This document shows, piece by piece, positions 2,057 through 52,198 of a stretch of DNA of 52,198 bases (position 1 is the first letter of the stretch; every line of letters begins with the position of its first letter). The translations under genes and the position numbers were made by a program. The notes under the pieces are model-generated. The model saw only the letters and a program-made list of their open reading frames with translations, was not told where the DNA came from and searched no databases. The DNA is from an uncultured Gammaproteobacteria bacterium. GTDB taxonomy: Bacteria > Patescibacteriota > Patescibacteriia > Patescibacteriales > UBA12465. Location of the stretch: the NCBI GenBank assembly GCA_964404515.1, contig CAYOKE010000002.1, positions 1-52,198 of the forward strand, in the 5' to 3' direction.

Positions 2057-3832
2057 GTGGCCTCTCTAAAAAATAAAATTATTCTTATTTGGCAGAAAGT
2101 TAAGAAGACTTTATCTTTTTTTGTTGTGTTAAAAAAACAGTCTAGCCAAGAAGAAATTGATAAACGCCTAGTTTATGCCCTTTCCCCGCGCAAGATACCG
2201 ACCAGCGGGCAATTCAGACATCTGGCGAAGTTCCTAAACCCCAAGGAATACCTGGTCGTCAAGATTTGCGCCTTATTAATCTTGGTTAATGTCGTTTATT
2301 TGGGAATCGTCTTTATAAACAAGCACCTCGAATATCTGCCTGTAGCTGGCGGTGAATATACGGAGGGGGCCATCGGTTACCCTAAGACGATCAACCCACT
2401 TTATGCCATTAATCGGGATATCGATAGCGATTTAAGTCGATTAATCTATTCCGGCCTTTTCAAGTATGACCAGAACGGTCAGCTAGTTAATGACCTGGCG
2501 GAAAGTGTCGCTGTTGAATCTGCTGGCCGGTCTTATATTATAAAGATAAGGCCCGGAGTTCGTTGGCATAATGGCGGCGAAGTGACGGCCGATGATGTTG
2601 TTTTTACAGTCGGACTGATTAAGAATAAGGATTATCGTTCACCCCTGCAGGATGATTTTTCCTTAGTAAACATAGAGAAAATCGATAATCAGACGGTTAA
2701 ATTTACTTTGAGCCAGCCCTATGCCCCGTTTCCAGAACTACTGACCTTCGGAATATTGCCGAAGGACTTATGGGAAGAAGTCAGCCCTAGTTCAGCAGCC
2801 TTGAATGATTTAAACCTAAAACCGATCGGTTCCGGTCCCTATAAATTTAAATCATTGGTCAGGAACAACGCGGGCGATATCAAAGAGTACCATCTGGTGG
2901 TTAATGAAGATTACTATGGACAGAAACCATATCTAAAGAGTATCAATTTCAAGTTTTTTGTCGATTACCAGGAAGAAATTAAAGCCTTTAATGATAATCA
3001 GCTGGACGGCTTGAGCTACTTACCTTTGGCTTCTCGCCAAGAACTCCTGGCACCAGATTCAGTAGCCTTTCATGAGTTGTCTCGTCCGCAGATAGTAGCG
3101 ATATTCTTCAACCGCGATAAAGATAAGGCTTTAGGCGATAAGAATGTCCGCCTTGGCTTAGCAAAAGCCCTAGATCGGGATCAGGCTATAAAAGACGTAT
3201 TCGGCGGGGCTTATTCTAGAACAGATGGCCCGATATTGCCCAGCAGCTTCGCCTATAATCCTCAGCTGAAAAGATATGAATATTCTCCGGCTGAAGCTAT
3301 TGACCTATTGAAAGGGAAGCTGGCCTCAACGACTTTGACTGTTATTGACTCCGGCAATAATGTTATTCTGGCTGAAAAGATAAAAAGCTATTGGGAGCGT
3401 TCCGGCGTCCAGGTAGAGTTAAGGGTTATTTCCGGCGATCAGGCAGTAGAAACCGTAAAAAATCGTGATTTCGAGAGTTTGATATACGGAGAATCAGTTG
3501 GCGGCGATCCGGATGTCTATGCTTTTTGGCATTCTTCGCAGGTTGGTTCTAGAGGGTTGAATTTAGCTGGTTATAACAATCCAGAAGTCGATAAACTGTT
3601 AGCGGACGCGAGAGAGACGACTGATCGGAGTGAGAGACAGGTAAAATATCAGAAATTTCAGGAAATCCTGACAGACGATTTACCGGTCATCTTTCTCTAT
3701 TCCCCTTCTTATACTTATATTCAAAACAAGAAAGTCAAAGGCTTCAATGGCAATATGGTGATTGAGCCAGCTGACCGCTTTGCCAGCTTGGCCGATTGGC
3801 ATGTAAAGACAAAGAAAAAATTTACATGGTAG
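2057..3832 (+). CDS. ABC transporter substrate-binding protein, family 5 (peptide/nickel type), N-terminally membrane anchored
   Basis: GTG start. TM anchor, then an SBP_bac_5-like sequence (YTEGAIGYPKTINPL, RPGVRWHNG, PDVYAFWHSS). No permease or ATPase genes adjacent. Confidence 0.8.
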   Translation: MASLKNKIILIWQKVKKTLSFFVVLKKQSSQEEIDKRLVYALSPRKIPTSGQFRHLAKFLNPKEYLVVKICALLILVNVVYLGIVFINKHLEYLPVAGGEYTEGAIGYPKTINPLYAINRDIDSDLSRLIYSGLFKYDQNGQLVNDLAESVAVESAGRSYIIKIRPGVRWHNGGEVTADDVVFTVGLIKNKDYRSPLQDDFSLVNIEKIDNQTVKFTLSQPYAPFPELLTFGILPKDLWEEVSPSSAALNDLNLKPIGSGPYKFKSLVRNNAGDIKEYHLVVNEDYYGQKPYLKSINFKFFVDYQEEIKAFNDNQLDGLSYLPLASRQELLAPDSVAFHELSRPQIVAIFFNRDKDKALGDKNVRLGLAKALDRDQAIKDVFGGAYSRTDGPILPSSFAYNPQLKRYEYSPAEAIDLLKGKLASTTLTVIDSGNNVILAEKIKSYWERSGVQVELRVISGDQAVETVKNRDFESLIYGESVGGDPDVYAFWHSSQVGSRGLNLAGYNNPEVDKLLADARETTDRSERQVKYQKFQEILTDDLPVIFLYSPSYTYIQNKKVKGFNGNMVIEPADRFASLADWHVKTKKKFTW

Positions 3833-3891
3833 TCCCCTTTTGGGGTGTCGAGCCTTGTTAGTATAACTCATAAAACTTAATAAACAAAAAC

Positions 3892-5682
3892 ATGTTTGTA
3901 AAACAACCGGTCGCGCCGGCCACTTTTAGGAAAAATTTTACTGGACCGCGGCGCCACAGTTCCTATCGTCATGAAAAAGTCGATAAGAAGGAATTCGGTC
4001 CAGCTAGCAACCCGTTGCGAGTGATAGTTTTAGGCGGCTTAGAAGAAGTCGGTCGGAACATGACCCTCATCGAGTATAATAAGGAAATAATCATAATTGA
4101 TATGGGCTTGCAATTCCCAGAAGAGGATATGCCGGGTATCGATTATATTATCCCCAATGTTTCTTATTTAAAAGACAAGAAAAATTGGATCAAGGGTGTG
4201 ATTATCACCCATGGCCATTATGATCATATTGGCGGCATTCCTCATATTATGGGTGAAATTGGAAATCCGCCGATGTTTATGGGCAAAATGACCGCCGGCT
4301 TGGTGCGTAAGCGTCAACAGGAACACAAAACCGCCCCCCAACTCAAGATAAAGGAAATTGATGAAACTCACTCCCTCAAGTTAGGGGCGTCTTTTCATCT
4401 TGAGTTCCTGCGTGTCAATCATTCTATCCCCGATTGTTTTGCGGTTCTTATCAAAACTGACCTTGGCACAATCGTTCATACTGGCGATTTTAAAATTGAT
4501 TTTTCGCCGGTCAATGATAAGCCGGCCGACTTGAATAGGATCGCTCAAATTGGCGGCCAGGGAGTCTTGATGCTGATGGCCGACTCTACAGATGCAACGC
4601 ATCCCGGCTATCAGATTTCTGAATCGGCCATCGGAGAAGAGATGGGAAAGCTGTTTGAAAAGATCGAGGGTCGTATCATAATCGGTACTTTTGCTTCTCA
4701 GTTGAGTCGCGTACAGAAGATTTTCGAATTGGCAGAGAAATACGGCCGTCGAGTCAATCTCCAAGGGCGCAGCATGAACGATAACGTCGATGTCGCGCAT
4801 CAGATTGGCTATCTGAAATTCAATCCTCGAATTTTGGCTGACGACCGGGAAATCAGTCGCTTGCCGGATAATAAAATCATCATTATCGGTACCGGCGCCC
4901 AGGGCGAGAGCAATGCTTTCTTAATGCGCGTTGTCAATGGCGAGCATCGTAGCGTCCATCTCAAGGCTGGAGATACTGTTCTCTTCTCTTCCTCGGTCAT
5001 CCCCGGGAATGAACGGACAATCCAGAATTTGATGGATATGATTGTCCGCCAGGGAGCGAAGGTCATCCATTATAAAATGTTGGACATCCATGCCGGTGGT
5101 CACGCTAAACAGGAGGACTTGAAGTTGGCCATGCGACTTTTTAAGCCGGAATATTTCATGCCGATCGAAGCTAACCATTATATGTTACAAGCTAATGCTG
5201 ATTTAGCCGAAGCGGTCGGTATTCCAAATAGCCGGATATTCATCGCCGATAATGGGCAGGTAGTCGAATTTCATCATTCTAGCGGAAAGGTGCTTGGTTC
5301 CCTGACTAAGGAGAAAGTTCCGACCGATTATATCATGGTTGACGGTTTAGGGGTCGGCGACGTTTCAGAGATAGTCTTGCGTGATCGGAGGATGATGGCC
5401 GAGGACGGCATGATTGTCATTATCGCTACCATAGATTCTAAGACCGGATCGATAATTGGCAATCCTGATTTGATATCTCGCGGCTTTGTCTATATGAAGG
5501 AGAACCGCGACTTAATCGAAAAGACCAGGACGAAGGTCAAGAAAATCGTGAAAGACAAGAACCCGATGACTGCGGCCGATGATGATTATATAAAGAATAA
5601 GATCCGTAATGATATTGGGCAATTCTTATTTAATTCCACTAAACGCCGTCCGATGGTCTTGCCAGTGGTAATTAAGGTTTAA
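3892..5682 (+). CDS. rnj: ribonuclease J
   Basis: Metallo-beta-lactamase HGHYDHIGG motif plus beta-CASP and C-terminal domain. About 596 aa, typical RNase J length. Confidence 0.9.
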   Translation: MFVKQPVAPATFRKNFTGPRRHSSYRHEKVDKKEFGPASNPLRVIVLGGLEEVGRNMTLIEYNKEIIIIDMGLQFPEEDMPGIDYIIPNVSYLKDKKNWIKGVIITHGHYDHIGGIPHIMGEIGNPPMFMGKMTAGLVRKRQQEHKTAPQLKIKEIDETHSLKLGASFHLEFLRVNHSIPDCFAVLIKTDLGTIVHTGDFKIDFSPVNDKPADLNRIAQIGGQGVLMLMADSTDATHPGYQISESAIGEEMGKLFEKIEGRIIIGTFASQLSRVQKIFELAEKYGRRVNLQGRSMNDNVDVAHQIGYLKFNPRILADDREISRLPDNKIIIIGTGAQGESNAFLMRVVNGEHRSVHLKAGDTVLFSSSVIPGNERTIQNLMDMIVRQGAKVIHYKMLDIHAGGHAKQEDLKLAMRLFKPEYFMPIEANHYMLQANADLAEAVGIPNSRIFIADNGQVVEFHHSSGKVLGSLTKEKVPTDYIMVDGLGVGDVSEIVLRDRRMMAEDGMIVIIATIDSKTGSIIGNPDLISRGFVYMKENRDLIEKTRTKVKKIVKDKNPMTAADDDYIKNKIRNDIGQFLFNSTKRRPMVLPVVIKV

Positions 5683-42854: not shown

Positions 42855-43301
42855 TTATTTTTGCCCCCAATCGATAAGTTCCGTGAATCTCAGATAGAAT
42901 CCGAACGGATCGACTAGGCGGAAATCCTTCCAAACATGGCCGTGATCTTCTAGTTCTTTCAGCTCCCGAACAATATCATCTTTTAAATTATCGGAGACTA
43001 CTTTGTATAATCCCTCGATATCATCCGTTACTATAGTAATCCCAGTAGCGTAGCCCCGTTTCGTGTCTTTGGGGAATTGCTTGAAAAAGGCTTGATTGTA
43101 GATTCGCCCATCTCCGCCATAAAAGTTGAGTATAGTATTGCCCGCCCTATCTCCTCTAGTCATGGTTAGGTAGCCAAGATTTTTTTCGTTTAATTTATCA
43201 TCCAAACTTACCTCAAAGCCTAGTTTTGAATAAAACTCCTTGATTATCTCCAGATCCGGAACGTGGAGTTCGATTATTAGGTTGTTTCTTATCGGTTGCA
43301 T
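42855..43301 (-). CDS. VOC/glyoxalase-bleomycin-resistance family protein (putative)
   Basis: About 148 aa, with a beta-alpha-beta-beta-beta-like pattern (ELHVPDLEIIKEFYSKLGFEV). Confidence 0.45.
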   Translation of the reverse strand: MQPIRNNLIIELHVPDLEIIKEFYSKLGFEVSLDDKLNEKNLGYLTMTRGDRAGNTILNFYGGDGRIYNQAFFKQFPKDTKRGYATGITIVTDDIEGLYKVVSDNLKDDIVRELKELEDHGHVWKDFRLVDPFGFYLRFTELIDWGQK

Positions 43302-43321
43302 AGTTTTATCATGATTCTAGC

Positions 43322-43873
43322 TTATTTATGCCCTTCTAGGGCTTTAATCCATCTTTCGTAATTTTCCTTGGCGAATTTTTTCCGCTCTTCTGAACCGATG
43401 CGATTATACATCCAGTCTAATTTTTCTTTTATTTTGCCACAACCTTCAAGTGGCGCTTTTTCTTGGACGAATTTTTGAGCGTTAGTTTCAAAGAAGCTGA
43501 CCGAATCCGCATCCCGGAGAGAATTTTGTTCCTCATCGCCTCCGATTTCGTGGCAACTGATAAGATTGCGAACTTTTTCTATAAGCGTGTCCGGCGCTTG
43601 TTCGGATTTCAAGAATTTAGCCATAAACGAAGCCCCTTTTTCCTGATGATTTTTCATGAATACCGGATCAAGGTAGTTTTTTGGTACAAGTTTATTTTTG
43701 TCCCTAAAAGCTCGTTCAATATCATGGCTGTAGGCGGCAATCCGGTGAGCCTCGGTCGTTTCCGGCCAGAATTTTTCCATCCAGAAAACCGTCCTCTCGA
43801 AATGCGGTTCACGTTCGACCCTAAATGATTGATTAACGTATTCTACGGTTTTTGCGTATAAGTCGTCCGCCAT
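43322..43873 (-). CDS. HD-superfamily protein (putative)
   Basis: AHRIAAYSHDIERAF His...His-Asp motif. Confidence 0.45.
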   Translation of the reverse strand: MADDLYAKTVEYVNQSFRVEREPHFERTVFWMEKFWPETTEAHRIAAYSHDIERAFRDKNKLVPKNYLDPVFMKNHQEKGASFMAKFLKSEQAPDTLIEKVRNLISCHEIGGDEEQNSLRDADSVSFFETNAQKFVQEKAPLEGCGKIKEKLDWMYNRIGSEERKKFAKENYERWIKALEGHK

Positions 43874-43878
43874 GGCGA

Positions 43879-44271
43879 TTAGAGGTTATCTTTTAGGAAA
43901 TTAGCTAATTCTATAAGCGGTTGCTTTTTGCTGTCCCAATGATAGGTTTTGATGCTGGCCGACTGGGCGCTCGCCACAGCTTCGGGGCTATGCTCAAAAT
44001 AGATGGCTTCCTCGGGTTTCAGGCCAAAATGATTAAGCATTTGGCGGTAATATTCCGGGTTGGTTTTATTCGGATTGTGTTTGAGGGTAAAGACTTTGTA
44101 TGGCGCCTTATCCAAGCCGAATTTTAGGAGCTGTTCGCCATTGGCATTAGTAAGGATGATTTTTTGGTTTGGAAAGTCGTCGAGCATTTTCTGGAGAGGC
44201 GTAAAAATCTTGAAATCATTTGCGATTTCAATAACCAAGGTACCGACCGCGTCGACGAGGATAGTTTTCAT
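43879..44271 (-). CDS. HAD-like hydrolase (small)
   Basis: N-terminal motif I-like ILVDAVGTLV. 130 aa. Confidence 0.5.
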   Translation of the reverse strand: MKTILVDAVGTLVIEIANDFKIFTPLQKMLDDFPNQKIILTNANGEQLLKFGLDKAPYKVFTLKHNPNKTNPEYYRQMLNHFGLKPEEAIYFEHSPEAVASAQSASIKTYHWDSKKQPLIELANFLKDNL

Positions 44272-44810
44272 ATTTGATTAATTATATCCATTAATTCCGT
44301 AGTAGCAAAATGCAAGACATAAGGAATAAACCTGGTTTTTTCTTCATCGGTCAAATTCAGTAATTTATTGAGCGTCCAAACTTCAAACCCCAAAGCCTTA
44401 CCTGCTTCAATCTTCAAATCCTTAACATCTCCTTTATAAATATAGACGTATCTGGCATTAAAAACATTATTTATTTTATTAGCGGTCTTATCTTCAGAAT
44501 ATTTTTTTATCTTGTTTATCAAAATTAAATCACTAGATTTAATTTTTACGCCAGTTTCTTCCCCAGTTTCTTTAATGGCGGTTTCTTCATAACTATCGCC
44601 TATCTCAACATGTCCGCCGACGGTGGCGTCTAATAAATTAGGATAGACATCCTTGTCTTTTGCTTGATGTTGAAAGATAATCTCCTTGTTTGGAGTAATA
44701 AAATAAACATGTATTTCTCGGTGAAGCAAACCATTTTTATGAATATTTTCTCTGGTTTCTTCGCTGATTATTTCGTCATGGTCATTAACGATATTTAATA
44801 TTTTTTTCAT
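44268..44810 (-). CDS. NUDIX hydrolase (IDI-like)
   Basis: Nudix box GGHVEIGDSYEETAIKETGEETGV. Start set at MKKILNIV to avoid a 41-nt overlap. Confidence 0.8.
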   Translation of the reverse strand: MKKILNIVNDHDEIISEETRENIHKNGLLHREIHVYFITPNKEIIFQHQAKDKDVYPNLLDATVGGHVEIGDSYEETAIKETGEETGVKIKSSDLILINKIKKYSEDKTANKINNVFNARYVYIYKGDVKDLKIEAGKALGFEVWTLNKLLNLTDEEKTRFIPYVLHFATTELMDIINQI

Positions 44811-44814
44811 ATGG

Positions 44815-45771
44815 TTAATAAGCCGTCGTTCTGGTCCTATGATAAGGCTTATCATCGGGAAATTTTTCTTGAGTAGCTAGCCATAAATGATCATTAATCT
44901 CGCTAGACATGATTTTATGATCCCCCCTGGCCACTATTTGCTTAATAAATTCTATTGCCCAGATAGTATTTGCCCTAATCTCAATTTCTTCATTCGAATT
45001 ATGTTCCAGTTCTATTTTATTATCAATTTTTTCGGCCAGTTCTTCAGAATAAACAAAAATACCAAACTTTCTTAAAATTTGTGGTAATTTATAATCAGCA
45101 CAAGCCGTTATAGACTCGATGCCTTTTAATTCCCCAAAACCACGGCCGTTAAATATTTGATAAATATCGGAAACTAACAATTGCGCTCTCTTATTAAAAA
45201 ATATTGTTTGTCCATTATAGGCAGATTCGTCTTTAAAAACTGGAAAATCGCTGATAACCAAATTCAACAGTTTTTGTGAATCCTTATTAGCCGCTTTTAC
45301 TAGATTATCTAAATGGCCGTTATATTTTTCTTGAGCAATCCGTCCGATTTCGTTAATAATCCCCAGTCTTTCTTTAAATAGCGGGATTTCTGTATTGGCT
45401 TTTAAAATATTGTCAAAGTCTTCGGCTGATAAATTGGCACAATAGTTAAAATTTAATATATTATAGCCCTCCTGTATTGCTCGTCCCAGAGCCATAATCA
45501 TTCCCCAGGCCCCATCATGTGATTTTCCCTCAAAGTCAATAGTCCATTTCGGCTCGCCCCAATAACAAAAACTCAAAGCGTTAAAAACAAATAAAAAATG
45601 CAGTTTATCTTCATCAGAAAAATGAAAAAAATTAAAAGGAGCTTCGCTTAACCAATGATGAACAGAGCCGTGTTCAAAGGTGCTGGCGAAATCAGTAAGC
45701 CTATCCATGTCTATTTTTACGGATTGTGAATTATCTACGACAAATTTTGTTGTTTCTAAAATTTTATTCAT
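44815..45771 (-). CDS. queuosine salvage family protein (DUF2419/Qng1-like), putative
   Basis: 318 aa. The FVFNALSFCYWGEPKW segment resembles the family signature as I recall it. Needs an HMM check. Confidence 0.5.
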   Translation of the reverse strand: MNKILETTKFVVDNSQSVKIDMDRLTDFASTFEHGSVHHWLSEAPFNFFHFSDEDKLHFLFVFNALSFCYWGEPKWTIDFEGKSHDGAWGMIMALGRAIQEGYNILNFNYCANLSAEDFDNILKANTEIPLFKERLGIINEIGRIAQEKYNGHLDNLVKAANKDSQKLLNLVISDFPVFKDESAYNGQTIFFNKRAQLLVSDIYQIFNGRGFGELKGIESITACADYKLPQILRKFGIFVYSEELAEKIDNKIELEHNSNEEIEIRANTIWAIEFIKQIVARGDHKIMSSEINDHLWLATQEKFPDDKPYHRTRTTAY

Positions 45772-45920
45772 AAAAACGCTATCTCATTTCAGCCGCTTGC
45801 AATGTAGCGGCAATCTTCGATAACGAATTCGCCTTATGATGTTCCGTCTAAAATTGAAAATAAAAGCAATTTTTCTTCAGTGCGGAGAGGGTGGGACGCA
45901 CTTAGAACGGTTTTGATTAA

Positions 45921-46796
45921 TTATCCAAGAGGAACTACGTCAGAAATATTGATTTGATCCGGAAATTCATTACGCAATTTTTCAATATCTTCTTTTTCCA
46001 TATTCCACCCAATAGCCCCTAGGTTTTCCTTTAGATGTTCTAAACTACGAGTTTTAGACAGAGTTACCACGTTTGATTGTGATATGAGCCAATTTATTGA
46101 AATTTGAGCAAAAGTTTTATTGTATTTTTTGCACATATCTTCAATAATCTTCGGGGTTGTTTCAAACAATTTAGATTTTTCCGTTGGCCTATAAGCTACA
46201 ATCATCACGTCATTTTCTTGGCAGTATTTTAGAAGTCCGCTTTGCTCAACCTCTCTCACCCTTAGATTATAGTGGACTTGATTGCAAACGATGGGATATT
46301 TGCTATAACTCTGCGCTTCTTTTAGATGCTCAACATTAAAGTTTGAGACCCCAATATTTTTAACTAACCCCTTATCTTTTAATTCAACAAGAGCCTTCAT
46401 AGTTTCTTCCAAAGAAAAATCTTTTGGAAATTGGTGTAATAGGTATAAATCTAGATAATCCACGTCTAATCTTTCCAAACTTTTTTTGCAGGCATTTATT
46501 ACGCCTTCGTATCCTTGATTACTTCCATGCACTTTTGAAACGATAAACAAATCTTCTCTCTTTATATTATTTTCTTTTAGAGCTTGGGCGATTATTTCTT
46601 CCGAGTGCCCATTAGCATATGATTCGGCAGTATCAATATGGATAATTCCTTCTTTTATAGCTGAATTTATTGCCTCAATATCAGTCTTGTCGTCATTTAG
46701 AAAGTCTCTCTCATTTCTTCCTCCCATCTGCCACGTACCCAGTCCGTACTCTGGAATCTCAAAACCATTTTTAAGTTTTTTAGTTGGAATATTCAT
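45921..46796 (-). CDS. aldo/keto reductase
   Basis: GLGTWQMG, IDTAESYAN, VSKVH and IGVSNF motifs. Confidence 0.9.
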   Translation of the reverse strand: MNIPTKKLKNGFEIPEYGLGTWQMGGRNERDFLNDDKTDIEAINSAIKEGIIHIDTAESYANGHSEEIIAQALKENNIKREDLFIVSKVHGSNQGYEGVINACKKSLERLDVDYLDLYLLHQFPKDFSLEETMKALVELKDKGLVKNIGVSNFNVEHLKEAQSYSKYPIVCNQVHYNLRVREVEQSGLLKYCQENDVMIVAYRPTEKSKLFETTPKIIEDMCKKYNKTFAQISINWLISQSNVVTLSKTRSLEHLKENLGAIGWNMEKEDIEKLRNEFPDQINISDVVPLG

Positions 46797-46860
46797 AATT
46801 TTACTTTAAGAATTTTTTGTTAATTGTCTTGGCAAATAGGGTGAGATGTAGCTGAAACGC

Positions 46861-47457
46861 TTATTGCTCAATAACAACAAAATCGCCCTCCTCTAAGGCA
46901 TAAATTGGCAAAGATTTATCACCATATTCAACAAGCTCATCATAAGCCTTCTGCCAATCTATTGCGCCCCTAGGGTCGCTACTGCCGAATCCAGATTTAT
47001 AATGGGGTATAAATCTGATAGGCAATATTCCTAACCCGTCAAAACATTGCCGCCAATCGCACGTCCAAAAATGTTTAGATAAAGCATTTGAGCTGGCCGA
47101 GCTAGTCGCCACGACTTTATCTTTCCAAATTTCCGGTAAGTTATACTGTTTGAGCCAATACAATAATAAAAAATCATCCCCTCCCGATAGAGTAATAACA
47201 TCATTATTTTTTATTTGTTCAACAAATTTGTCAGGTAAAGCCATTTCAAATTTAGGCTTAATGTCGTTACCGATTAATTGTGAAAACAGAGACTTATATG
47301 ATTCAAATTTTTCCTCCCAATTTTCTCGTTTTTCCGCAAAAGAACAAGATAAAATTCGAGGCTCCTTGCCTAAGTCTTTAATCATTTCCTTAAAAAATAG
47401 AGCAGCTTTTTCTAAATTATTTTTTGTGCCGCCAGAATTAAGAATATATTTTGTCAT
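46861..47457 (-). CDS. peptidase S51 / GATase1-like protein
   Basis: ITLSGGDDFLL and ATSSASSNAL motifs. ATGA overlap with the upstream repeat-protein gene. Confidence 0.55.
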   Translation of the reverse strand: MTKYILNSGGTKNNLEKAALFFKEMIKDLGKEPRILSCSFAEKRENWEEKFESYKSLFSQLIGNDIKPKFEMALPDKFVEQIKNNDVITLSGGDDFLLLYWLKQYNLPEIWKDKVVATSSASSNALSKHFWTCDWRQCFDGLGILPIRFIPHYKSGFGSSDPRGAIDWQKAYDELVEYGDKSLPIYALEEGDFVVIEQ

Positions 47458-47804
47458 ATCGAAAAATTATAATAAGAAGATTCCCCGTAGTCATAAAGAC
47501 TTATACCATTGCCATTAACATTTCCAGAAAAGTGTGCTGAATCGTCATAGTCATAGCCGCTAAATTTGTTACTATTTATCTTTAATGAAATATGGCTACT
47601 ATTACCATAATGATATAGGTTTGGTAAATTGCCGCTTATATGGCAGTTCTCTGAATAGTCATAAATAGACACTCTTTCCAAACTTACGGAGCCACTAAAA
47701 GAATGATACTGAGAGGATGAATAGTCATAAACAGCACTTTTATTTTGTGCTGTTATTATTCTGCCAACAATGTAAGCAATGGCTCTACGAGTTTGTGGTT
47801 TCAT
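47454..47804 (-). CDS. small Y-D-Y repeat protein, unknown family
   Basis: Five copies of h-Y-(D/H)-Y-x-x-(S/N)-x-(H/Y)-h-S-(G), starting at residues 25, 47, 63, 83 and 103 of 116. Confidence 0.7.
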   Translation of the reverse strand: MKPQTRRAIAYIVGRIITAQNKSAVYDYSSSQYHSFSGSVSLERVSIYDYSENCHISGNLPNLYHYGNSSHISLKINSNKFSGYDYDDSAHFSGNVNGNGISLYDYGESSYYNFSI

Positions 47805-47815
47805 ATAGATTTTGG

Positions 47816-48352
47816 CTACTTGGTAAACAAATCATGTAAAACCAATAAATTAGTTTGCACTATTTGCACACTACTAAAAATCTCCCTTAATTTATGGTCT
47901 TTTAGTTTATGAGCCTCACATTTAAAATGATTCTTAAAATTTGCTTTGCATTTTTCTCTAAAATTCTTTTTATCGGTGCTACAAACTTGTTTTTTTCCAG
48001 CTATTGCTAGTATCATCCCTTCGGTATTTGGATCACATAATTGAACCAAATTCCTTTTTTCTAAAATAAATTTTTTTATTTCTTCTGAATCATCTAAATC
48101 ATTATCTATGATAAACAAAAAATTAACATGCGCATAATCTTTTTTTGGCCTCAAATCATTCGCTTTACATAGTTTATTATATTTTCTTTTAAATTCAGCA
48201 AAATCTCTAACTCCTCCCATATCCTGCGGCCTTCCAAATCTTATTTTTTTATTCCAATATAATATTTTTAAAAAATTAAAAACATGAATCTCGGTTTCAC
48301 CCTCACAAAAAGGGATAATTAAATCTTTCTGTTTTATCTTATTTCTCCTCAT
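47816..48352 (-). CDS. RloB-like (AbiLii-like, TOPRIM-type) protein
   Basis: IIPFCEGETEIHVFNFLK (compare the RloB CEGE-TE motif), FLFIIDNDLDD and LCDPNTEGMILAI. 4-nt overlap with the ATPase gene. Confidence 0.6.
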   Translation of the reverse strand: MRRNKIKQKDLIIPFCEGETEIHVFNFLKILYWNKKIRFGRPQDMGGVRDFAEFKRKYNKLCKANDLRPKKDYAHVNFLFIIDNDLDDSEEIKKFILEKRNLVQLCDPNTEGMILAIAGKKQVCSTDKKNFREKCKANFKNHFKCEAHKLKDHKLREIFSSVQIVQTNLLVLHDLFTK

Positions 48353-49584
48353 AACAACTGCTTTAATTTGTAATCAAATACCGAAATGTCTGGAACACCT
48401 CCGAACATGCCGAGCCTATATTTTTTCTTGATATTGTCTCGACTTTTAACATCTTCGATTTCCGACAATTTATAGACAACGGACGAGGAATTTTCTTTTT
48501 CCACAATAAACGTTTGATCTATATCTAGCAAATCCATGGTATCGTGGTTATGAGAAGCAAAAAATAACTGCGCGTTCTTTGTATTAAATTCTTTATTCTT
48601 AAAGAGTGAAAGTAGTGCCAACTCAATATCCGGATGAAAGTAACGATTAGTTTCGTCATAAATTACAGTACCACCATTTTTAAACGCAGTTAAAATATCA
48701 TAAATATGGCAAAATAATTCCCTGGTGCCAGCCGATTCTTCTAATATTTCAATACTGTCGGCAAAGTCTTTATGCTTAACCTTAATAGACATACTGCTAT
48801 TGTTCTCGGTATTTATTTCTAAATTCTCGATGGTATCATCAAAACAACTAATTATCTCTTTTGTGAGCTTTAAGGCTTCATCTTTTTTCTCTTTGTCAAA
48901 TGAATTAATTTTAAAGGCATTCATAAAAATTGCCGCAGGAATCGGCATGCCAATGTCAAACCCATCGGTTTTAAGAAAACCTGGATTCTGTTTCCTATAA
49001 TTTATAAAGTCTATTACCGCCTTAGCCCCAACATTATTTATCAGATGAGAAATAAAAGTTTGATATTCTTGAACATTGGCAATAGACAAATAATCTTCAT
49101 GATCCTTATAGTCCGGGCCAAAATTAACGCCCTTAACAGTCCTGGTAAAAATCTCTTTTGGTTTTGCGGAAACTTTATCAAGTGTCGTAATAAATAATTT
49201 TTCGCCAATAATACTATCACCATTTTTTATCTCTATATCGTACTTATAATAATTATTATTTATAAGAAAATCTATGCCTAATTTTGTTGACTTATCTTTG
49301 AATTTCTTATACATGTTGGGGCGACATAACAAAATTTTACTAACAGTATCCTTAGGCGTATTTATATTATAAATAAGCCTAATTAATGTAACCATTGCTT
49401 TTAGTACATTACTTTTACCACTTGCATTGGCTCCAAAGAAACCATTAATTAGCGATATCTTTTCCAATTTTTCATGTTGAAAATAACCTCCATTTTTTTC
49501 GGTCTTTTTCCCGCCTTTTATAAACTCTAACTCCATTTTTTCTCCAATAGAATAAAAGTTGCTAATTCTCACTTTTGTTATCAT
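48349..49584 (-). CDS. AAA_15/AAA_21-type ATPase (RloA/AbiLi-like)
   Basis: ISNFYSIGE N-terminus, Walker A GANASGKSN, Walker B VIYDETNRYFHP, and FFASHNHD. Confidence 0.85.
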   Translation of the reverse strand: MITKVRISNFYSIGEKMELEFIKGGKKTEKNGGYFQHEKLEKISLINGFFGANASGKSNVLKAMVTLIRLIYNINTPKDTVSKILLCRPNMYKKFKDKSTKLGIDFLINNNYYKYDIEIKNGDSIIGEKLFITTLDKVSAKPKEIFTRTVKGVNFGPDYKDHEDYLSIANVQEYQTFISHLINNVGAKAVIDFINYRKQNPGFLKTDGFDIGMPIPAAIFMNAFKINSFDKEKKDEALKLTKEIISCFDDTIENLEINTENNSSMSIKVKHKDFADSIEILEESAGTRELFCHIYDILTAFKNGGTVIYDETNRYFHPDIELALLSLFKNKEFNTKNAQLFFASHNHDTMDLLDIDQTFIVEKENSSSVVYKLSEIEDVKSRDNIKKKYRLGMFGGVPDISVFDYKLKQLL

Positions 49585-49654
49585 ATAGATAATATTACAA
49601 TAAATTGTTATATTTCAATTATAGTATATTAAAAAAATGATGTCAAGTCTTATT

Positions 49655-49674
49655 TTTTACATTTTAATGTAAAA
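49655..49674. promoter_or_regulatory. 9-bp perfect inverted repeat in a divergent promoter region
   Basis: TTTTACATT-TT-AATGTAAAA. Confidence 0.35.
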
Positions 49675-49755
49675 TATTAAAAATAATAAATTTAACAAAA
49701 CAAACTAAAATTAGCTCAAATTGTTATTAGTCTTTATTTGTGCCAAAATAAGACT

Positions 49756-50574
49756 ATGGCAACCCACGAAATCAAACAAAAAATTGAGATTCTGCTCGAT
49801 AAATATCAGAAAAATTCAGGCACCGTTAAGGGTTTTGACGTTCTTTTTGAATACGTTGATTTTTTAAAGAGCGAGCCATATACTGTCAATCTGTTAAAGT
49901 CTCAATTTGACTATGCCAAAGACCAAGTGGCCCAACTGGACGAATATATAGCTAAGAATAACTGCTTTAAAGAAATTCCTAATCCGCATAAAATAATGGA
50001 GTTTAAAGATGTCTCCGATGTTCCTATGCATAAGGATATGTTAGCGGTCGGCCTGGAACAGCGGAAAAATCAGGAACACGCCAATATGTCACAAATGCTC
50101 CCCATGGCCATAACTCAACTGGTTATGCTTTACGAGGGTATGGGCAGAATTAAAGAACAGTTAAAGAATAAAGAAGAAATAGACGACAAATTAAATATTC
50201 TCCAGGAACTGCCAACATCTACATTAAGAGTTAAAGTCGGTGAAGAATTAAACAGCATACCTTTTGCGGTTTTTGCTAAAACAAACTTGCTCATCTCCGC
50301 TAAATACATTTTGGATAAAATTGATATTGAAGAATTGTCCGAGGAAACTAAAAAAGAACCCTGGTTTGATAAGGTTAATAGCGTTCTATATTTTCAAAAC
50401 AAGCAGATAAAAATAACTCTCAAAAATGATAAGCCTCTGGATCATTATATTCTTGAGGCAATATTTTCTAAAAACGATTTAAACAAACTGATTTTGTTGA
50501 AATTGCCGAGGATATTCTCAAAGAAGAATATAACGGCAAATGGGAACGGTTCCGCCACGCTTGCGATAAACTGA
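49756..50574 (+). CDS. hypothetical protein, apparently frameshifted (coding signal continues in the -1 frame to 50675)
   Basis: ATG at 49756 (the track start 49738 is TTG). The -1 frame opens at 50472 and reads ..DFVEIAEDILKEEYNGKWERFRHACDKLNQKIFKATDNQISDFIEYTTGKTGWCKVNQKYQ, stopping at 50673-50675 just before a strong terminator. Confidence 0.6.
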   Translation: MATHEIKQKIEILLDKYQKNSGTVKGFDVLFEYVDFLKSEPYTVNLLKSQFDYAKDQVAQLDEYIAKNNCFKEIPNPHKIMEFKDVSDVPMHKDMLAVGLEQRKNQEHANMSQMLPMAITQLVMLYEGMGRIKEQLKNKEEIDDKLNILQELPTSTLRVKVGEELNSIPFAVFAKTNLLISAKYILDKIDIEELSEETKKEPWFDKVNSVLYFQNKQIKITLKNDKPLDHYILEAIFSKNDLNKLILLKLPRIFSKKNITANGNGSATLAIN

Positions 50575-50694
50575 ATCAAAAAATCTTTAAAGCAACTGAT
50601 AACCAGATTAGCGACTTCATAGAATACACGACCGGAAAGACAGGTTGGTGCAAAGTTAATCAAAAATACCAATAAAAACAATTAAATAGACTTT

Positions 50695-50730
50695 AGGCCT
50701 TGCATGCAAAATGGTGCAAGGCCTTTTTTG
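50695..50730 (+). terminator. rho-independent terminator
   Basis: AGGCCTTGCA / 10-nt loop / TGCAAGGCCT followed by TTTTTT. Confidence 0.85.
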
Positions 50731-50742
50731 TATGCTTAAGTC

Positions 50743-50889
50743 ATGATTCAACATTATGACGAACAATTAATATCAGAAACCCAAGAATATTTTAGCGGAT
50801 TGTATGGGCGAGCCATAACTCCCGATGAGGCGGAATCTTTTTTGAAATCTTTAGTTAATTTATACGATTCTCTTTCTAATAAGGATTAA
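50743..50889 (+). CDS. 48-aa ORF below the ORF-track cutoff, hypothetical
   Basis: Translates as MIQHYDEQLISETQEYFSGLYGRAITPDEAESFLKSLVNLYDSLSNKD. Sits between a terminator and the long hairpin upstream of Rep. Confidence 0.35.
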   Translation: MIQHYDEQLISETQEYFSGLYGRAITPDEAESFLKSLVNLYDSLSNKD

Positions 50890-50950
50890 CTCTTTTTTTT
50901 CTTTTCGGCGGCTACCCCTTGGGGGAGCCGAAAAGAAAAAAGTTATCCTT
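50881..50950. repeat. ~70-nt long imperfect inverted repeat (candidate origin or terminator)
   Basis: Arms 50881-50909 and 50927-50950 pair over about 24 bp: AAGGAT(T)AAC/GTTATCCTT, T-run/A-run, CTTTTCGGC/GCCGAAAAG. The apex is a CCCC-TTG-GGGG mini-hairpin. Confidence 0.7.
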
Positions 50951-50991
50951 GTTAAAAGAACTTCTAATTAGAAATAGATAATAACAAATAT

Positions 50992-51933
50992 ATGGAACAA
51001 CAAGATAATAAATACCTATCTAATCGCAAACTAGTTAAATCTGGCTCGCTTTTGGAGATATATCAATTCGGCCGAGATATTAATCTAGGTAGAAAAATCA
51101 GACGTATTAAGACTGAAGAAGAAAAGGCCTTGCAGACTGATAGACCGAAAGCCAGTGCCGAGGAAAAACTAAAGTCCTCCGCTCGTCGGGCGAGAAGGAT
51201 GATTAAACGGCTTATTATGGCTAATTGCTTTCTGTGGTTTAAAGAAAAGGGCAAACCATATTTACCGATTACGCTCACCCTGACTTTTGCTAAGAATATT
51301 ACTAACTTAAAAAAGGCTAATTATGAATTTACTAAATTTATCAGACGGCTTAATTACGAAACTAACGCCATTGAGGGGAAAGATTTAAAGCAAAGTAATT
51401 TAAAATACCTGGCGGTCTTTGAACTGCAGAAAAGAAAGGCGATTCACTATCATATGATTTTCTTTAATCTCCCTTATATCAAAGATGTTTATCGAAAGAT
51501 GTATAAAATTTGGGGACAGGGTCGTATAATGGTCGGCGGAAAAGATAGGAATTTTAATAAAGTTAAAGATCAGGTTCAACTTAAAAAAATAATTTTTTAC
51601 TTTATCAAATACATTCAAAAATCGGTCTTTGAAAATGACTTCCCTCGGCAAAAGAAATATATCGCCAGTAAAGGACTGCTCAAACCGCAAGAAAATTCAT
51701 TTGTTGAAGTCGTGTCGCTCGTGGAATCTAAATTATCGGATAAGCAACTGGTCTATAAGTATGACGGCGAAACGGAATATAACAATAGCGATATTAGAGA
51801 TACCGTCGGGCAACCGCAAAACTTCTTACGTTGGTTTAATTATCAGCAATATGATTTATCTGATAACCCCGAATTATATAGTGATATTACTCGGCTACTA
51901 AACGGCCTATCGATAGACGATATTGATTTTTAG
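50992..51933 (+). CDS. HUH-superfamily rolling-circle replication initiator (Rep)
   Basis: Three motifs in canonical order: ITLTLTF (motif 1), AIHYHMIFF (HUH motif 2), FYFIKYIQK (Y-x-x-x-Y motif 3, as in phiX174 gpA YVAKY). Confidence 0.75.
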   Translation: MEQQDNKYLSNRKLVKSGSLLEIYQFGRDINLGRKIRRIKTEEEKALQTDRPKASAEEKLKSSARRARRMIKRLIMANCFLWFKEKGKPYLPITLTLTFAKNITNLKKANYEFTKFIRRLNYETNAIEGKDLKQSNLKYLAVFELQKRKAIHYHMIFFNLPYIKDVYRKMYKIWGQGRIMVGGKDRNFNKVKDQVQLKKIIFYFIKYIQKSVFENDFPRQKKYIASKGLLKPQENSFVEVVSLVESKLSDKQLVYKYDGETEYNNSDIRDTVGQPQNFLRWFNYQQYDLSDNPELYSDITRLLNGLSIDDIDF

Positions 51934-51958
51934 CTTGTTCTTTAGTATATTAATAGTA

Positions 51959-52094
51959 TTCACCTAACATAATAAACAGACATGCCCAGGGTATTTTTTT
52001 AACAAATACCTTTGTCGCTCGAAATGGGCAGTTCTGCCAAACGATAAATTAACCTTTGGGCTAGTTTGTTATGTTGGGTGAATCAGGACTGCCC
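51959..52094 (+). other. highly structured intergenic region (candidate single-strand origin, att site or ncRNA)
   Basis: 19-bp long-range stem 51959-51977 / 52064-82 (two G-T pairs). Inner hairpins GGTATTT/AAATACC (51990-52010) and GGCA-GTTC-TGCC (52027-52038). GGGCAGT/ACTGCCC (52026-32 / 52088-94) followed by TTTTT. Confidence 0.5.
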
Positions 52095-52119
52095 TTTTTG
52101 ATTATTAAAATATAATTAT

Positions 52120-52198
52120 ATGAACGACAAAAACGAAACAATTAAATATGCCCTCTACTGCCGAAAGTCTACCGAGGACAGCAGTCGGCAAATTCTTT
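52120..52198 (+). CDS. serine recombinase, N-terminal 26 codons (partial, runs off the window)
   Basis: MNDKNETIKYALYCRKSTEDSSRQIL matches the Y-x-R-x-S-(T/S)-x-x-Q catalytic-serine N-terminus of the resolvase/invertase/large serine recombinase family. Confidence 0.55.
   Translation, partial: MNDKNETIKYALYCRKSTEDSSRQIL

Follow-up and report, generated by a model that had tools for sequence, protein, structure and literature searches.

The question raised by this locus is whether four tightly packed genes on one strand form a single anti-phage system or a two-gene module of a known kind with other genes behind it. The DNA analysed (the window) is a whole stretch of 52,198 nt, contig CAYOKE010000002.1 of GenBank assembly GCA_964404515.1, and the genes in question encode, in their order along the minus strand, an ATPase, a small Toprim-like partner, a repeat protein (the YDY protein) and a protein related to Peptidase_S51 (Table 1). 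An earlier note had raised the possibility that they constitute a four-gene variant of the AbiL/RloAB type of defence system. The four co-directional open reading frames (ORFs), their coordinates and junctions and the motifs quoted there were all as described when read from the sequence: the ATPase and partner genes overlap by 4 nt (ATGA), the TAG stop codon of the partner gene is followed by 11 nt and the ATG of the repeat gene, and the repeat and S51 genes again share an ATGA overlap. The reading that we prefer, to which we give a probability of about 0.65, is that a two-gene AbiL-type module is carried on a mobile element, that the genes past the partner stop codon (repeat, S51 and an aldo/keto reductase) make up a variable and separately acquired cargo block, and that the repeat gene is an autonomous gene of defence islands.

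The ATPase–partner pair and the genes behind it

The ATPase was matched by the PADLOC AbiLi profile PDLC02335 (7.5e-60) and by Pfam AAA_21 (1.4e-14), the AriA (5.8e-15), HEC-01A and PtuA profiles all being much weaker than AbiLi, and in the PDB there was a weak match to the OLD nuclease 6P74 (E 0.004). It carries a Walker A motif (GANASGKSN, residue 51), an ABC-signature-like SAGTRE (residue 284), a Walker B motif (VIYDE, residue 307) and an H-loop (ASHNHD, residue 343). Its partner carries the motifs CEGETE (residue 16), IIDND (residue 81) and DPNTEG (residue 107) and belongs to a small family, 20 sequences having been found among 5.8 billion, one of them named as a protein of a Patescibacteria metagenome-assembled genome (MAG); CEGExE, DND and PNxE are invariant throughout this family. 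The earlier description of the partner as RloB-like held in part. Pfam RloB (PF13707) was matched neither by the window partner at E<=0.1 nor by any of the 20 family members at E<=1, but the PADLOC AbiLii models were matched weakly, PDLC02338 by 12/20 members and PDLC02337 by 10/20 (best E 4.5e-6; window partner itself, E=0.008). The partner was not matched by the DUF4435 or AriB profiles. An AlphaFold2 (AF2) model of the partner, with a predicted local distance difference test score (pLDDT) of 89, has the alternating strand–helix topology expected of a Toprim core, although a Foldseek search of the PDB with this model gave nothing significant (OLD 6P74 at E 0.13, topoisomerase II at E 0.05) and a search of PDB sequences with the partner-family profile gave no match. 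Because of the AbiLii matches, the invariant motifs and the predicted topology we take the partner to be a divergent AbiLii-like Toprim protein, a homology that is probable rather than proven, and by analogy it may be a nuclease. The ATPase and Toprim-like domains lie on two separate ORFs, unlike the single polypeptide of OLD. On the strength of the ATPase match and the gene architecture the first two genes were filed as an AbiL/RloAB-like pair, as the earlier note had proposed.

The same pair was found in six other independent contexts (L113–L124, Table 2). In five of these a full-length ATPase homolog, 79–96% identical, lies beside the same partner and in the sixth the ATPase gene is truncated; the gene order and the 4-nt overlap are maintained in all six. 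When the repeat-family hidden Markov model (HMM) was run against six-frame translations of these loci there was no match, so that the repeat gene is present in 0/6 pair contexts. In the other direction, about 110 loci carrying the repeat gene were examined with ORFs called anew, and in none of these did the four genes flanking the repeat gene on each side include a homolog when searched by phmmer with the window ATPase, partner and S51 proteins. As a conserved system the four-gene combination is thus not supported by these comparisons and appears largely refuted.

Table 2. The ATPase–partner pair outside the window, with identity to the window proteins and the genes that follow
Loci	ATPase	Partner	Genes that follow
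L119/L120	96%	79%	2-hydroxyacid dehydrogenase, cupin
L113/L114	94%	76%	small ORF, NUDIX
L121/L122	82%	68%	127 aa, 153 aa, Mrr_cat
L115/L116	79%	63%	S51 pseudogene
L123/L124	79%	58%	114 aa, 254 aa
L117/L118	truncated gene (77% over C-terminal 132 aa)	56%	transposase

The fourth gene is S51-like, as had been suggested: its product matches Pfam Peptidase_S51 over residues 5–197 (6.8e-13, 49.2 bits against a curated cut-off of 23.9), with a score of 33 bits against the cut-off of 156 for NCBIfam PepE. Candidate catalytic residues lie within TSSASS (118), IPHY (150) and LEEGD (188), and phmmer against the PDB with this protein found no solved S51 structure. In L115 (5556–6184) and L116 an S51-family gene also follows the pair, but an A-run frameshift and an in-frame TAG make this copy a pseudogene, while the pair beside it is intact, which argues against an essential role for S51. 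Moreover, identity between the window and L115 S51 sequences is only about 35% over 60 aa, as against 79% for the ATPases, a divergence so far above that of the pair that the two S51 genes would not have been co-inherited with it. An ancestral third component was considered and is unlikely for the same two reasons, and the window S51 gene is probably island cargo. A true four-gene system, with ATPase, RloB-like nuclease, repeat protein and S51 peptidase acting together, would account for the tight packing of the genes, for gaps free of terminator-like sites and for the S51-family gene placed 12 nt after the pair in L115/L116. We nevertheless consider it very improbable, as the combination occurs in no other locus examined, the S51 copy of L115 has decayed and diverged as just described, in the other repeat-gene loci, about 110 in number, no S51 gene is found among the four neighbours on each side, and homology to the closest sister element ends 4 nt past the partner stop codon (below). 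Peptidase_S51 was also not among the 25 commonest Pfam families when 49 downstream neighbours of the repeat gene were scanned.

The mobile element and its variable cargo

The earlier note had placed the genes in an AT-rich block beside a rolling-circle Rep and a serine recombinase, and this was borne out. From about 44268 to the end of the window the G+C content at third codon positions (GC3) is 0.22–0.40, compared with 0.43–0.53 in the genes directly before; the Rep matches REP_ORF2-G2P (9.9e-16); and the window closes, in its final approximately 80 nt, with the 5' end of a serine recombinase gene, the encoded N-terminus (translation MNDKNETIKYALYCRKSTEDSSRQIL) matching a Resolvase/Recombinase protein of L119. 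This sister element, on a metagenomic contig, has the recombinase, Rep (91% identical), 278-aa protein (90% identical) and pair in common with the window. At the DNA level the two are 86% identical over 4308 nt and homology stops at window position 47812, 4 nt past the partner stop codon, beyond which L119 carries 2-hydroxyacid dehydrogenase and cupin genes. The repeat, S51 and reductase genes here and the dehydrogenase and cupin genes of L119 seem to be two alternative sets of cargo occupying a single variable slot. Window and L119 (6903–6935) also have in common, at 97% identity, a 33-bp element (AAACCGTTCYAAGTGCGTCCCACCCTCTCCGCA), which lies after the aldo/keto reductase gene in the former and after the cupin gene in the latter. 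The window holds one copy against 0 expected by chance and elsewhere the element was found only in L119/L120. The reductase gene sits inside the stretch from the homology breakpoint to this element, which may be a boundary of cargo exchange or attachment. The pair is cargo of a small integrative element with serine recombinase, rolling-circle Rep and 278-aa protein, and in this lineage, which has Patescibacteria/candidate phyla radiation (CPR) genomes as its nearest relatives, it is a clear and mobile module of the AbiL type. The 278-aa protein is 29% identical to a protein in the same position of L121/L122 and gave no family match in Pfam, NCBIfam or PADLOC; neither the pair nor the Rep has relatives in IMG/VR.

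Table 1. Features of the window around the ATPase–partner pair
Feature	Position	Strand	Evidence
33-bp element common to window and L119	45881..45913	not assigned	97% identity
Aldo/keto reductase	45921..46796	-	Pfam Aldo_ket_red at 5e-66; 64 nt downstream of S51 gene
Divergent Peptidase_S51-family protein, 198 aa	46861..47457	-	Pfam Peptidase_S51
Five-hairpin 'YDY' small beta-barrel protein (predicted fold), 116 aa	47454..47804	-	homolog family, AF2 model
Small Toprim-like partner (AbiLii/RloB-like, divergent), 178 aa	47816..48352	-	PADLOC AbiLii (weak), invariant motifs
AbiLi-type ABC/SMC-like ATPase, 411 aa	48349..49584	-	PADLOC AbiLi, Pfam AAA_21, motifs
Sigma-70-type consensus promoter (putative), TTGACA-17-TATAAT, 5' of ATPase gene	49618..49646	-	12/12 matches
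278-aa protein, divergently oriented from ATPase gene	49738..50574	+	L119 homolog 90% identical
Rolling-circle-type replication initiator (REP_ORF2-G2P)	50992..51933	+	Pfam 9.9e-16
Serine recombinase gene, 5' end, cut at window end	52121..52198	+	N-terminus matches L119 Resolvase/Recombinase protein

The site upstream of the ATPase gene, a perfect TTGACA-17-TATAAT, was the top-scoring promoter-like site of the region; such sites were not enriched overall (23 found against 24.3 expected) and we infer that this one functions as a promoter. The terminator scan placed no site in the gaps separating the four genes. Three weak terminator-like hairpins fall within the coding sequence of the ATPase and S51 genes, the region having 4 sites against 3.4 by chance, and the 64-nt gap between the S51 and aldo/keto reductase genes has no terminator-like site, one weak site lying at the 3' end of the S51 gene. 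An Rfam scan of 43000–52198 found no RNA family and a DNA repeat scan gave nothing notable. Transcription of the pair would probably start from the consensus promoter, with translation of ATPase and partner coupled through their overlap. As in the PARIS/OLD/AbiL class the ATPase would sense a phage cue and control its nuclease partner; by analogy with PARIS it would hold the nuclease inactive until then, and the nuclease would be released or activated and infection would stop through nucleic-acid cleavage. In this genome the genes 3' of the pair would be read through from the same promoter.

Further features of the island concern its edge and the rest of its contents. The jump in GC3 that marks the edge coincides with a 4-nt overlap (44268–44271) between an NUDIX-like ORF (44268..44855) and a higher-GC 130-aa ORF (43879..44271), so that the island boundary falls within overlapping reading frames. 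The NUDIX-like ORF (195 aa) was assigned by eye only, with no scan, and lies on the same strand as the pair, as does a queuosine-salvage (Q_salvage) gene at 44815–45771, downstream of the aldo/keto reductase gene; both are metabolic cargo. L119 has an additional 212-aa gene, lacking in the window, between recombinase and Rep (window 47812–52198 compared with L119 1–5541). Everything else in the window is chromosome of an ordinary kind, encoding RNase J, PPDK, SMC and eight tRNAs.

The repeat protein family

That the third gene encodes a real repeat protein, as had been claimed, was confirmed by its five Y-D/H-Y motifs (four YDY and one YHY, at residues 26, 48, 64, 84 and 104) and by its conservation. 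There were 145 homologs at E<=0.01, and clustering at 50% identity gave 926 clusters at E<=1e-3 and 705 at E<=1e-10, nearly all of them stand-alone proteins of 112–125 aa. Fusions of the repeat domain were sought among the 926 clusters and rejected, the longer proteins being artefacts of upstream starts or read-throughs. Members come from CPR groups (Adlerbacteria, Portnoybacteria, Paceibacterota) and from Flavobacteria, Pedobacter, Acidobacteriota, Geobacter, Paenibacillus, Clostridia, Nitrospirota, Opitutales, Gammaproteobacteria including Rahnella, and Myxococcota. By sequence comparison the protein is thus assigned as a genuine conserved member of a large uncharacterised family. Its AF2 model (pLDDT 98, predicted TM-score 0.91) has an N-terminal helix and 10 strands, and each of the five predicted hairpins starts at a YDY/YHY motif. 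Foldseek searches of the PDB and BFVD with this model gave nothing at E<=0.001. The nearest PDB shapes, all weak with template modelling (TM) scores below 0.5, were LolA, FABP and lipocalin barrels, and no Tubby structure was among the top 50 PDB matches. The profile libraries (Pfam, NCBIfam, PADLOC) yielded no usable match to the protein, and the family has no curated Pfam domain. The Pfam families PF21784–PF21786 were not matched by any of 53 family members at E<=10, and hhalign of the family with a neighbour picked by eye as Bflower (PF21784), not confirmed by the scan, gave a probability of 0.2%. DUF5334 was weakly matched by 35/53 members (best E 1.5e-4). The matching stretch was shown for the window protein alone, where it covered just residues 96–115, the last hairpin, and this hints at a hairpin unit common to another uncharacterised family. 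No match to the repeat protein was found in 50,697 records of cultured phages.

The neighbourhoods of the repeat gene were then compared. Among 50 non-redundant same-strand upstream neighbours (Pfam, PADLOC) there were 12 with SduA_C, 4 with AAA_15 and OLD Toprim and 3 with HEPN, and single occurrences of DUF4435, PIN7, RE_AlwI, TIR_2, UvrD_C and SocA_Panacea; in all, at least 24/50 are recognisable defence effectors, far above any genomic background. Downstream neighbours included HsdS, DUF3800, methyltransferases and Mrr. The commonest order was hsdR-hsdM-SduA-[repeat]-hsdS, found in 13 loci with 4-nt overlaps on both sides of the repeat gene, and this placing of a Shedu–repeat unit inside a Type I restriction–modification (R-M) operon is a recurrent nesting of one defence system in another. 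A Type I R-M operon is also the setting of the nearest homolog (59% identity), which is preceded there by two unknown genes. An anti-restriction role was considered and rejected, the gene being embedded in host Type I R-M operons and the protein, with a net charge of about -1, being no acidic DNA mimic. The earlier note had asked whether repeat homologs co-localise with ATPase/RloB pairs. In the loci examined none does so with this pair outside the window, but homologs do follow four OLD-type proteins and, in a Bacteroidetes MAG (L004), an AAA_15/21 + DUF4435 pair. Adjacency to ATPase/Toprim systems and to many nucleases is therefore not random, yet it is not specific to AbiL.

Other copies stand apart from any such effector. 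The upstream neighbour is on the opposite strand in 26 loci; in Corallococcus the gene stands alone, flanked by transposase genes; and in 11 IMG/VR contigs most copies stand alone, surrounded by terminase, portal, head-protease and antiterminator genes, a prophage moron position. In L109–L112 (e.g. L110 5707–6066) the 3' end of a 667-aa OLD-type gene has taken the place of the 5' half of the repeat gene, whose 3' half is still nearly identical to the intact L041 copy (3531–3893), a footprint of defence-gene turnover at this slot. Because of the promiscuous neighbours, the opposite-strand upstream genes and the stand-alone prophage copies we regard the family as strongly, though not exclusively, tied to defence effectors of unrelated folds and as behaving like an independent unit. 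An autonomous role is favoured, for example as a single-gene anti-phage or defence-modulating factor, for which the single-gene beta-flower protein Cernunnos would be a precedent. We propose, tentatively and at somewhat less than even odds, that the YDY family represents an autonomous gene of a new kind, anti-phage or defence-modulating, with at least 900 clusters at 50% identity and more than 10 phyla including CPR, present in prophages, preferring slots after nuclease effectors and the interior of Type I R-M operons, its fold having no solved relative.

Ranked second is an accessory role, in which the protein would be a promiscuous regulator, inhibitor or antitoxin-like factor, or sensor adaptor of whichever nuclease lies upstream and the window would hold a three-component AbiL variant. 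Such a role would explain why the gene lies directly downstream of effector nucleases with many folds, often at 4-nt overlaps or gaps under 60 nt, and why it follows an ATPase + DUF4435 pair and OLD proteins, which are of the same mechanistic class as AbiL; the 11-nt gap in the window also leaves no room for a promoter. We consider it rather unlikely, however, that one small barrel would bind PD-(D/E)xK, Toprim, HEPN, PIN and TIR effectors specifically. The absence of the repeat gene from the six other contexts indicates that the pair does not need it, the opposite-strand neighbours and the mostly stand-alone prophage copies speak for independence, and overwriting by an OLD gene is not the fate of a required partner. 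It is also conceivable, although quite unlikely, that the protein is unrelated to defence and is a structural or ligand-binding beta-barrel drifting through variable regions and prophage moron slots, which are defence-rich. The weak likeness to the lipid- and ligand-binding barrels LolA, FABP and lipocalins would fit with this, as would distant plasmid homologs in inositol and other metabolic contexts and housekeeping genes in some neighbourhoods, but such drift accounts poorly for the share of defence effectors among the immediate upstream neighbours (at least 24/50) and for the 13 loci in which the gene is embedded in Type I R-M operons with overlapping frames.

Several of these observations weigh against the reading of a two-gene module with separately acquired cargo and an autonomous repeat gene. 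The four genes are so tightly packed (overlaps and an 11-nt gap), with gaps free of terminator-like sites, that they are almost certainly co-expressed, and a functional link specific to this lineage could still exist among them. The presence of an S51-family gene 3' of the pair in a second lineage, L115/L116, with a gap of 12 nt, is not what pure chance would lead one to expect. In 46/101 loci the repeat gene has a same-strand neighbour at most 60 nt upstream, and such a preference for the position behind a nuclease gene could be explained by an accessory role too. The neighbourhoods in a genome sample of wide taxonomic range are heterogeneous and include housekeeping genes, so the link of the family to defence is statistical, not universal. 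Lastly, the only plasmid matches to the repeat protein, three distant ones from sphingomonads, sit in metabolic contexts, e.g. directly after iolE, showing that the wider superfamily is not confined to defence islands.

Some details of individual loci may be added. The loci with Shedu (SduA_C) and the YDY gene nested between hsdM and hsdS are L002, L003, L017, L034–L036, L042, L044, L046, L047, L051, L077 and L094. In L052 (7408–7707) and L035 (1659–1868) other small beta-rich proteins are encoded directly downstream of the repeat gene; they resemble, by eye, the four-fold beta-flower (PF21784) and KTSC matches among the downstream neighbours, for which the scan gives no locus per match. Two of the plasmid homologs, on a Sphingomonas plasmid (NZ_CP155753.1, L136) and a Novosphingobium plasmid (NZ_CP140001.1, L137), are about 137 aa long and 22–24% identical.

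For the study of defence islands three points follow. The partner diverges so far that it escapes the standard Pfam model, and surveys relying on that model may under-count such systems. Overlapping stop and start codons and tight packing in compact genomes do not alone define a system. The repeat family, being large, with a confident and unmatched predicted fold and neighbourhoods dominated by immune nucleases, is a lead worth following: should it act in defence, whether by itself or as an accessory of general use, defence islands would have been lacking a widespread component until now, and as a single gene for a 116-aa protein it is a cheap experimental target.

Comparison with known systems

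Peptidase S51, the dipeptidase E/cyanophycinase family, is matched over the full length of the window protein, although at 198 aa this is shorter than PepE (a 233-position profile). To our knowledge the family has no link to defence. Shedu (SduA) in Type I R-M operons is the commonest home of the repeat family, whereas the window has no Shedu or hsd gene near the repeat gene; Shedu itself has been described as a single-gene system without a small partner.

The repeat model is like the beta-flower/Tubby-like barrels (Pfam clan CL0395) in its ten short antiparallel strands, five similar hairpins and one hydrophobic helix, and its architecture fits the published description of five-fold beta-flowers (PMC10584680), the comparison being by description and not by structure. 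The beta-flower family includes Cernunnos, a single-gene anti-phage protein, and the repeat protein is likewise small, stand-alone and found in defence contexts. The helix is C-terminal in beta-flowers but N-terminal in the repeat protein, and there is no sequence link.

PARIS (AriA/AriB) shares with the pair the logic of an ABC ATPase combined with a Toprim nuclease, and the PARIS-type AAA_15/21 + DUF4435 pair of L004 has a repeat homolog directly after it. The window partner, however, is not a DUF4435 protein and is far smaller than AriB, and AbiLi is a much better match to the ATPase. AbiL, RloAB and PARIS have been grouped as ATPase + TOPRIM/OLD systems in a 2026 review, according to which further work is needed on whether AbiL and RloAB act like PARIS (PMC13064643). 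The closest likeness is to AbiL (AbiLi/AbiLii, Lactococcus) and RloA/RloB (Type I R-M loci of Campylobacter), in which an ATPase gene likewise overlaps a small Toprim-type gene, and mobile carriage is common to AbiL (on a plasmid) and the window (on an integrative element). The window differs in that two co-expressed extra genes follow the pair and in that the partner is shorter (178 aa), falls outside the Pfam RloB model and forms a small family of its own. From these comparisons the pair is best regarded as a divergent addition to the known ATPase + Toprim kind.

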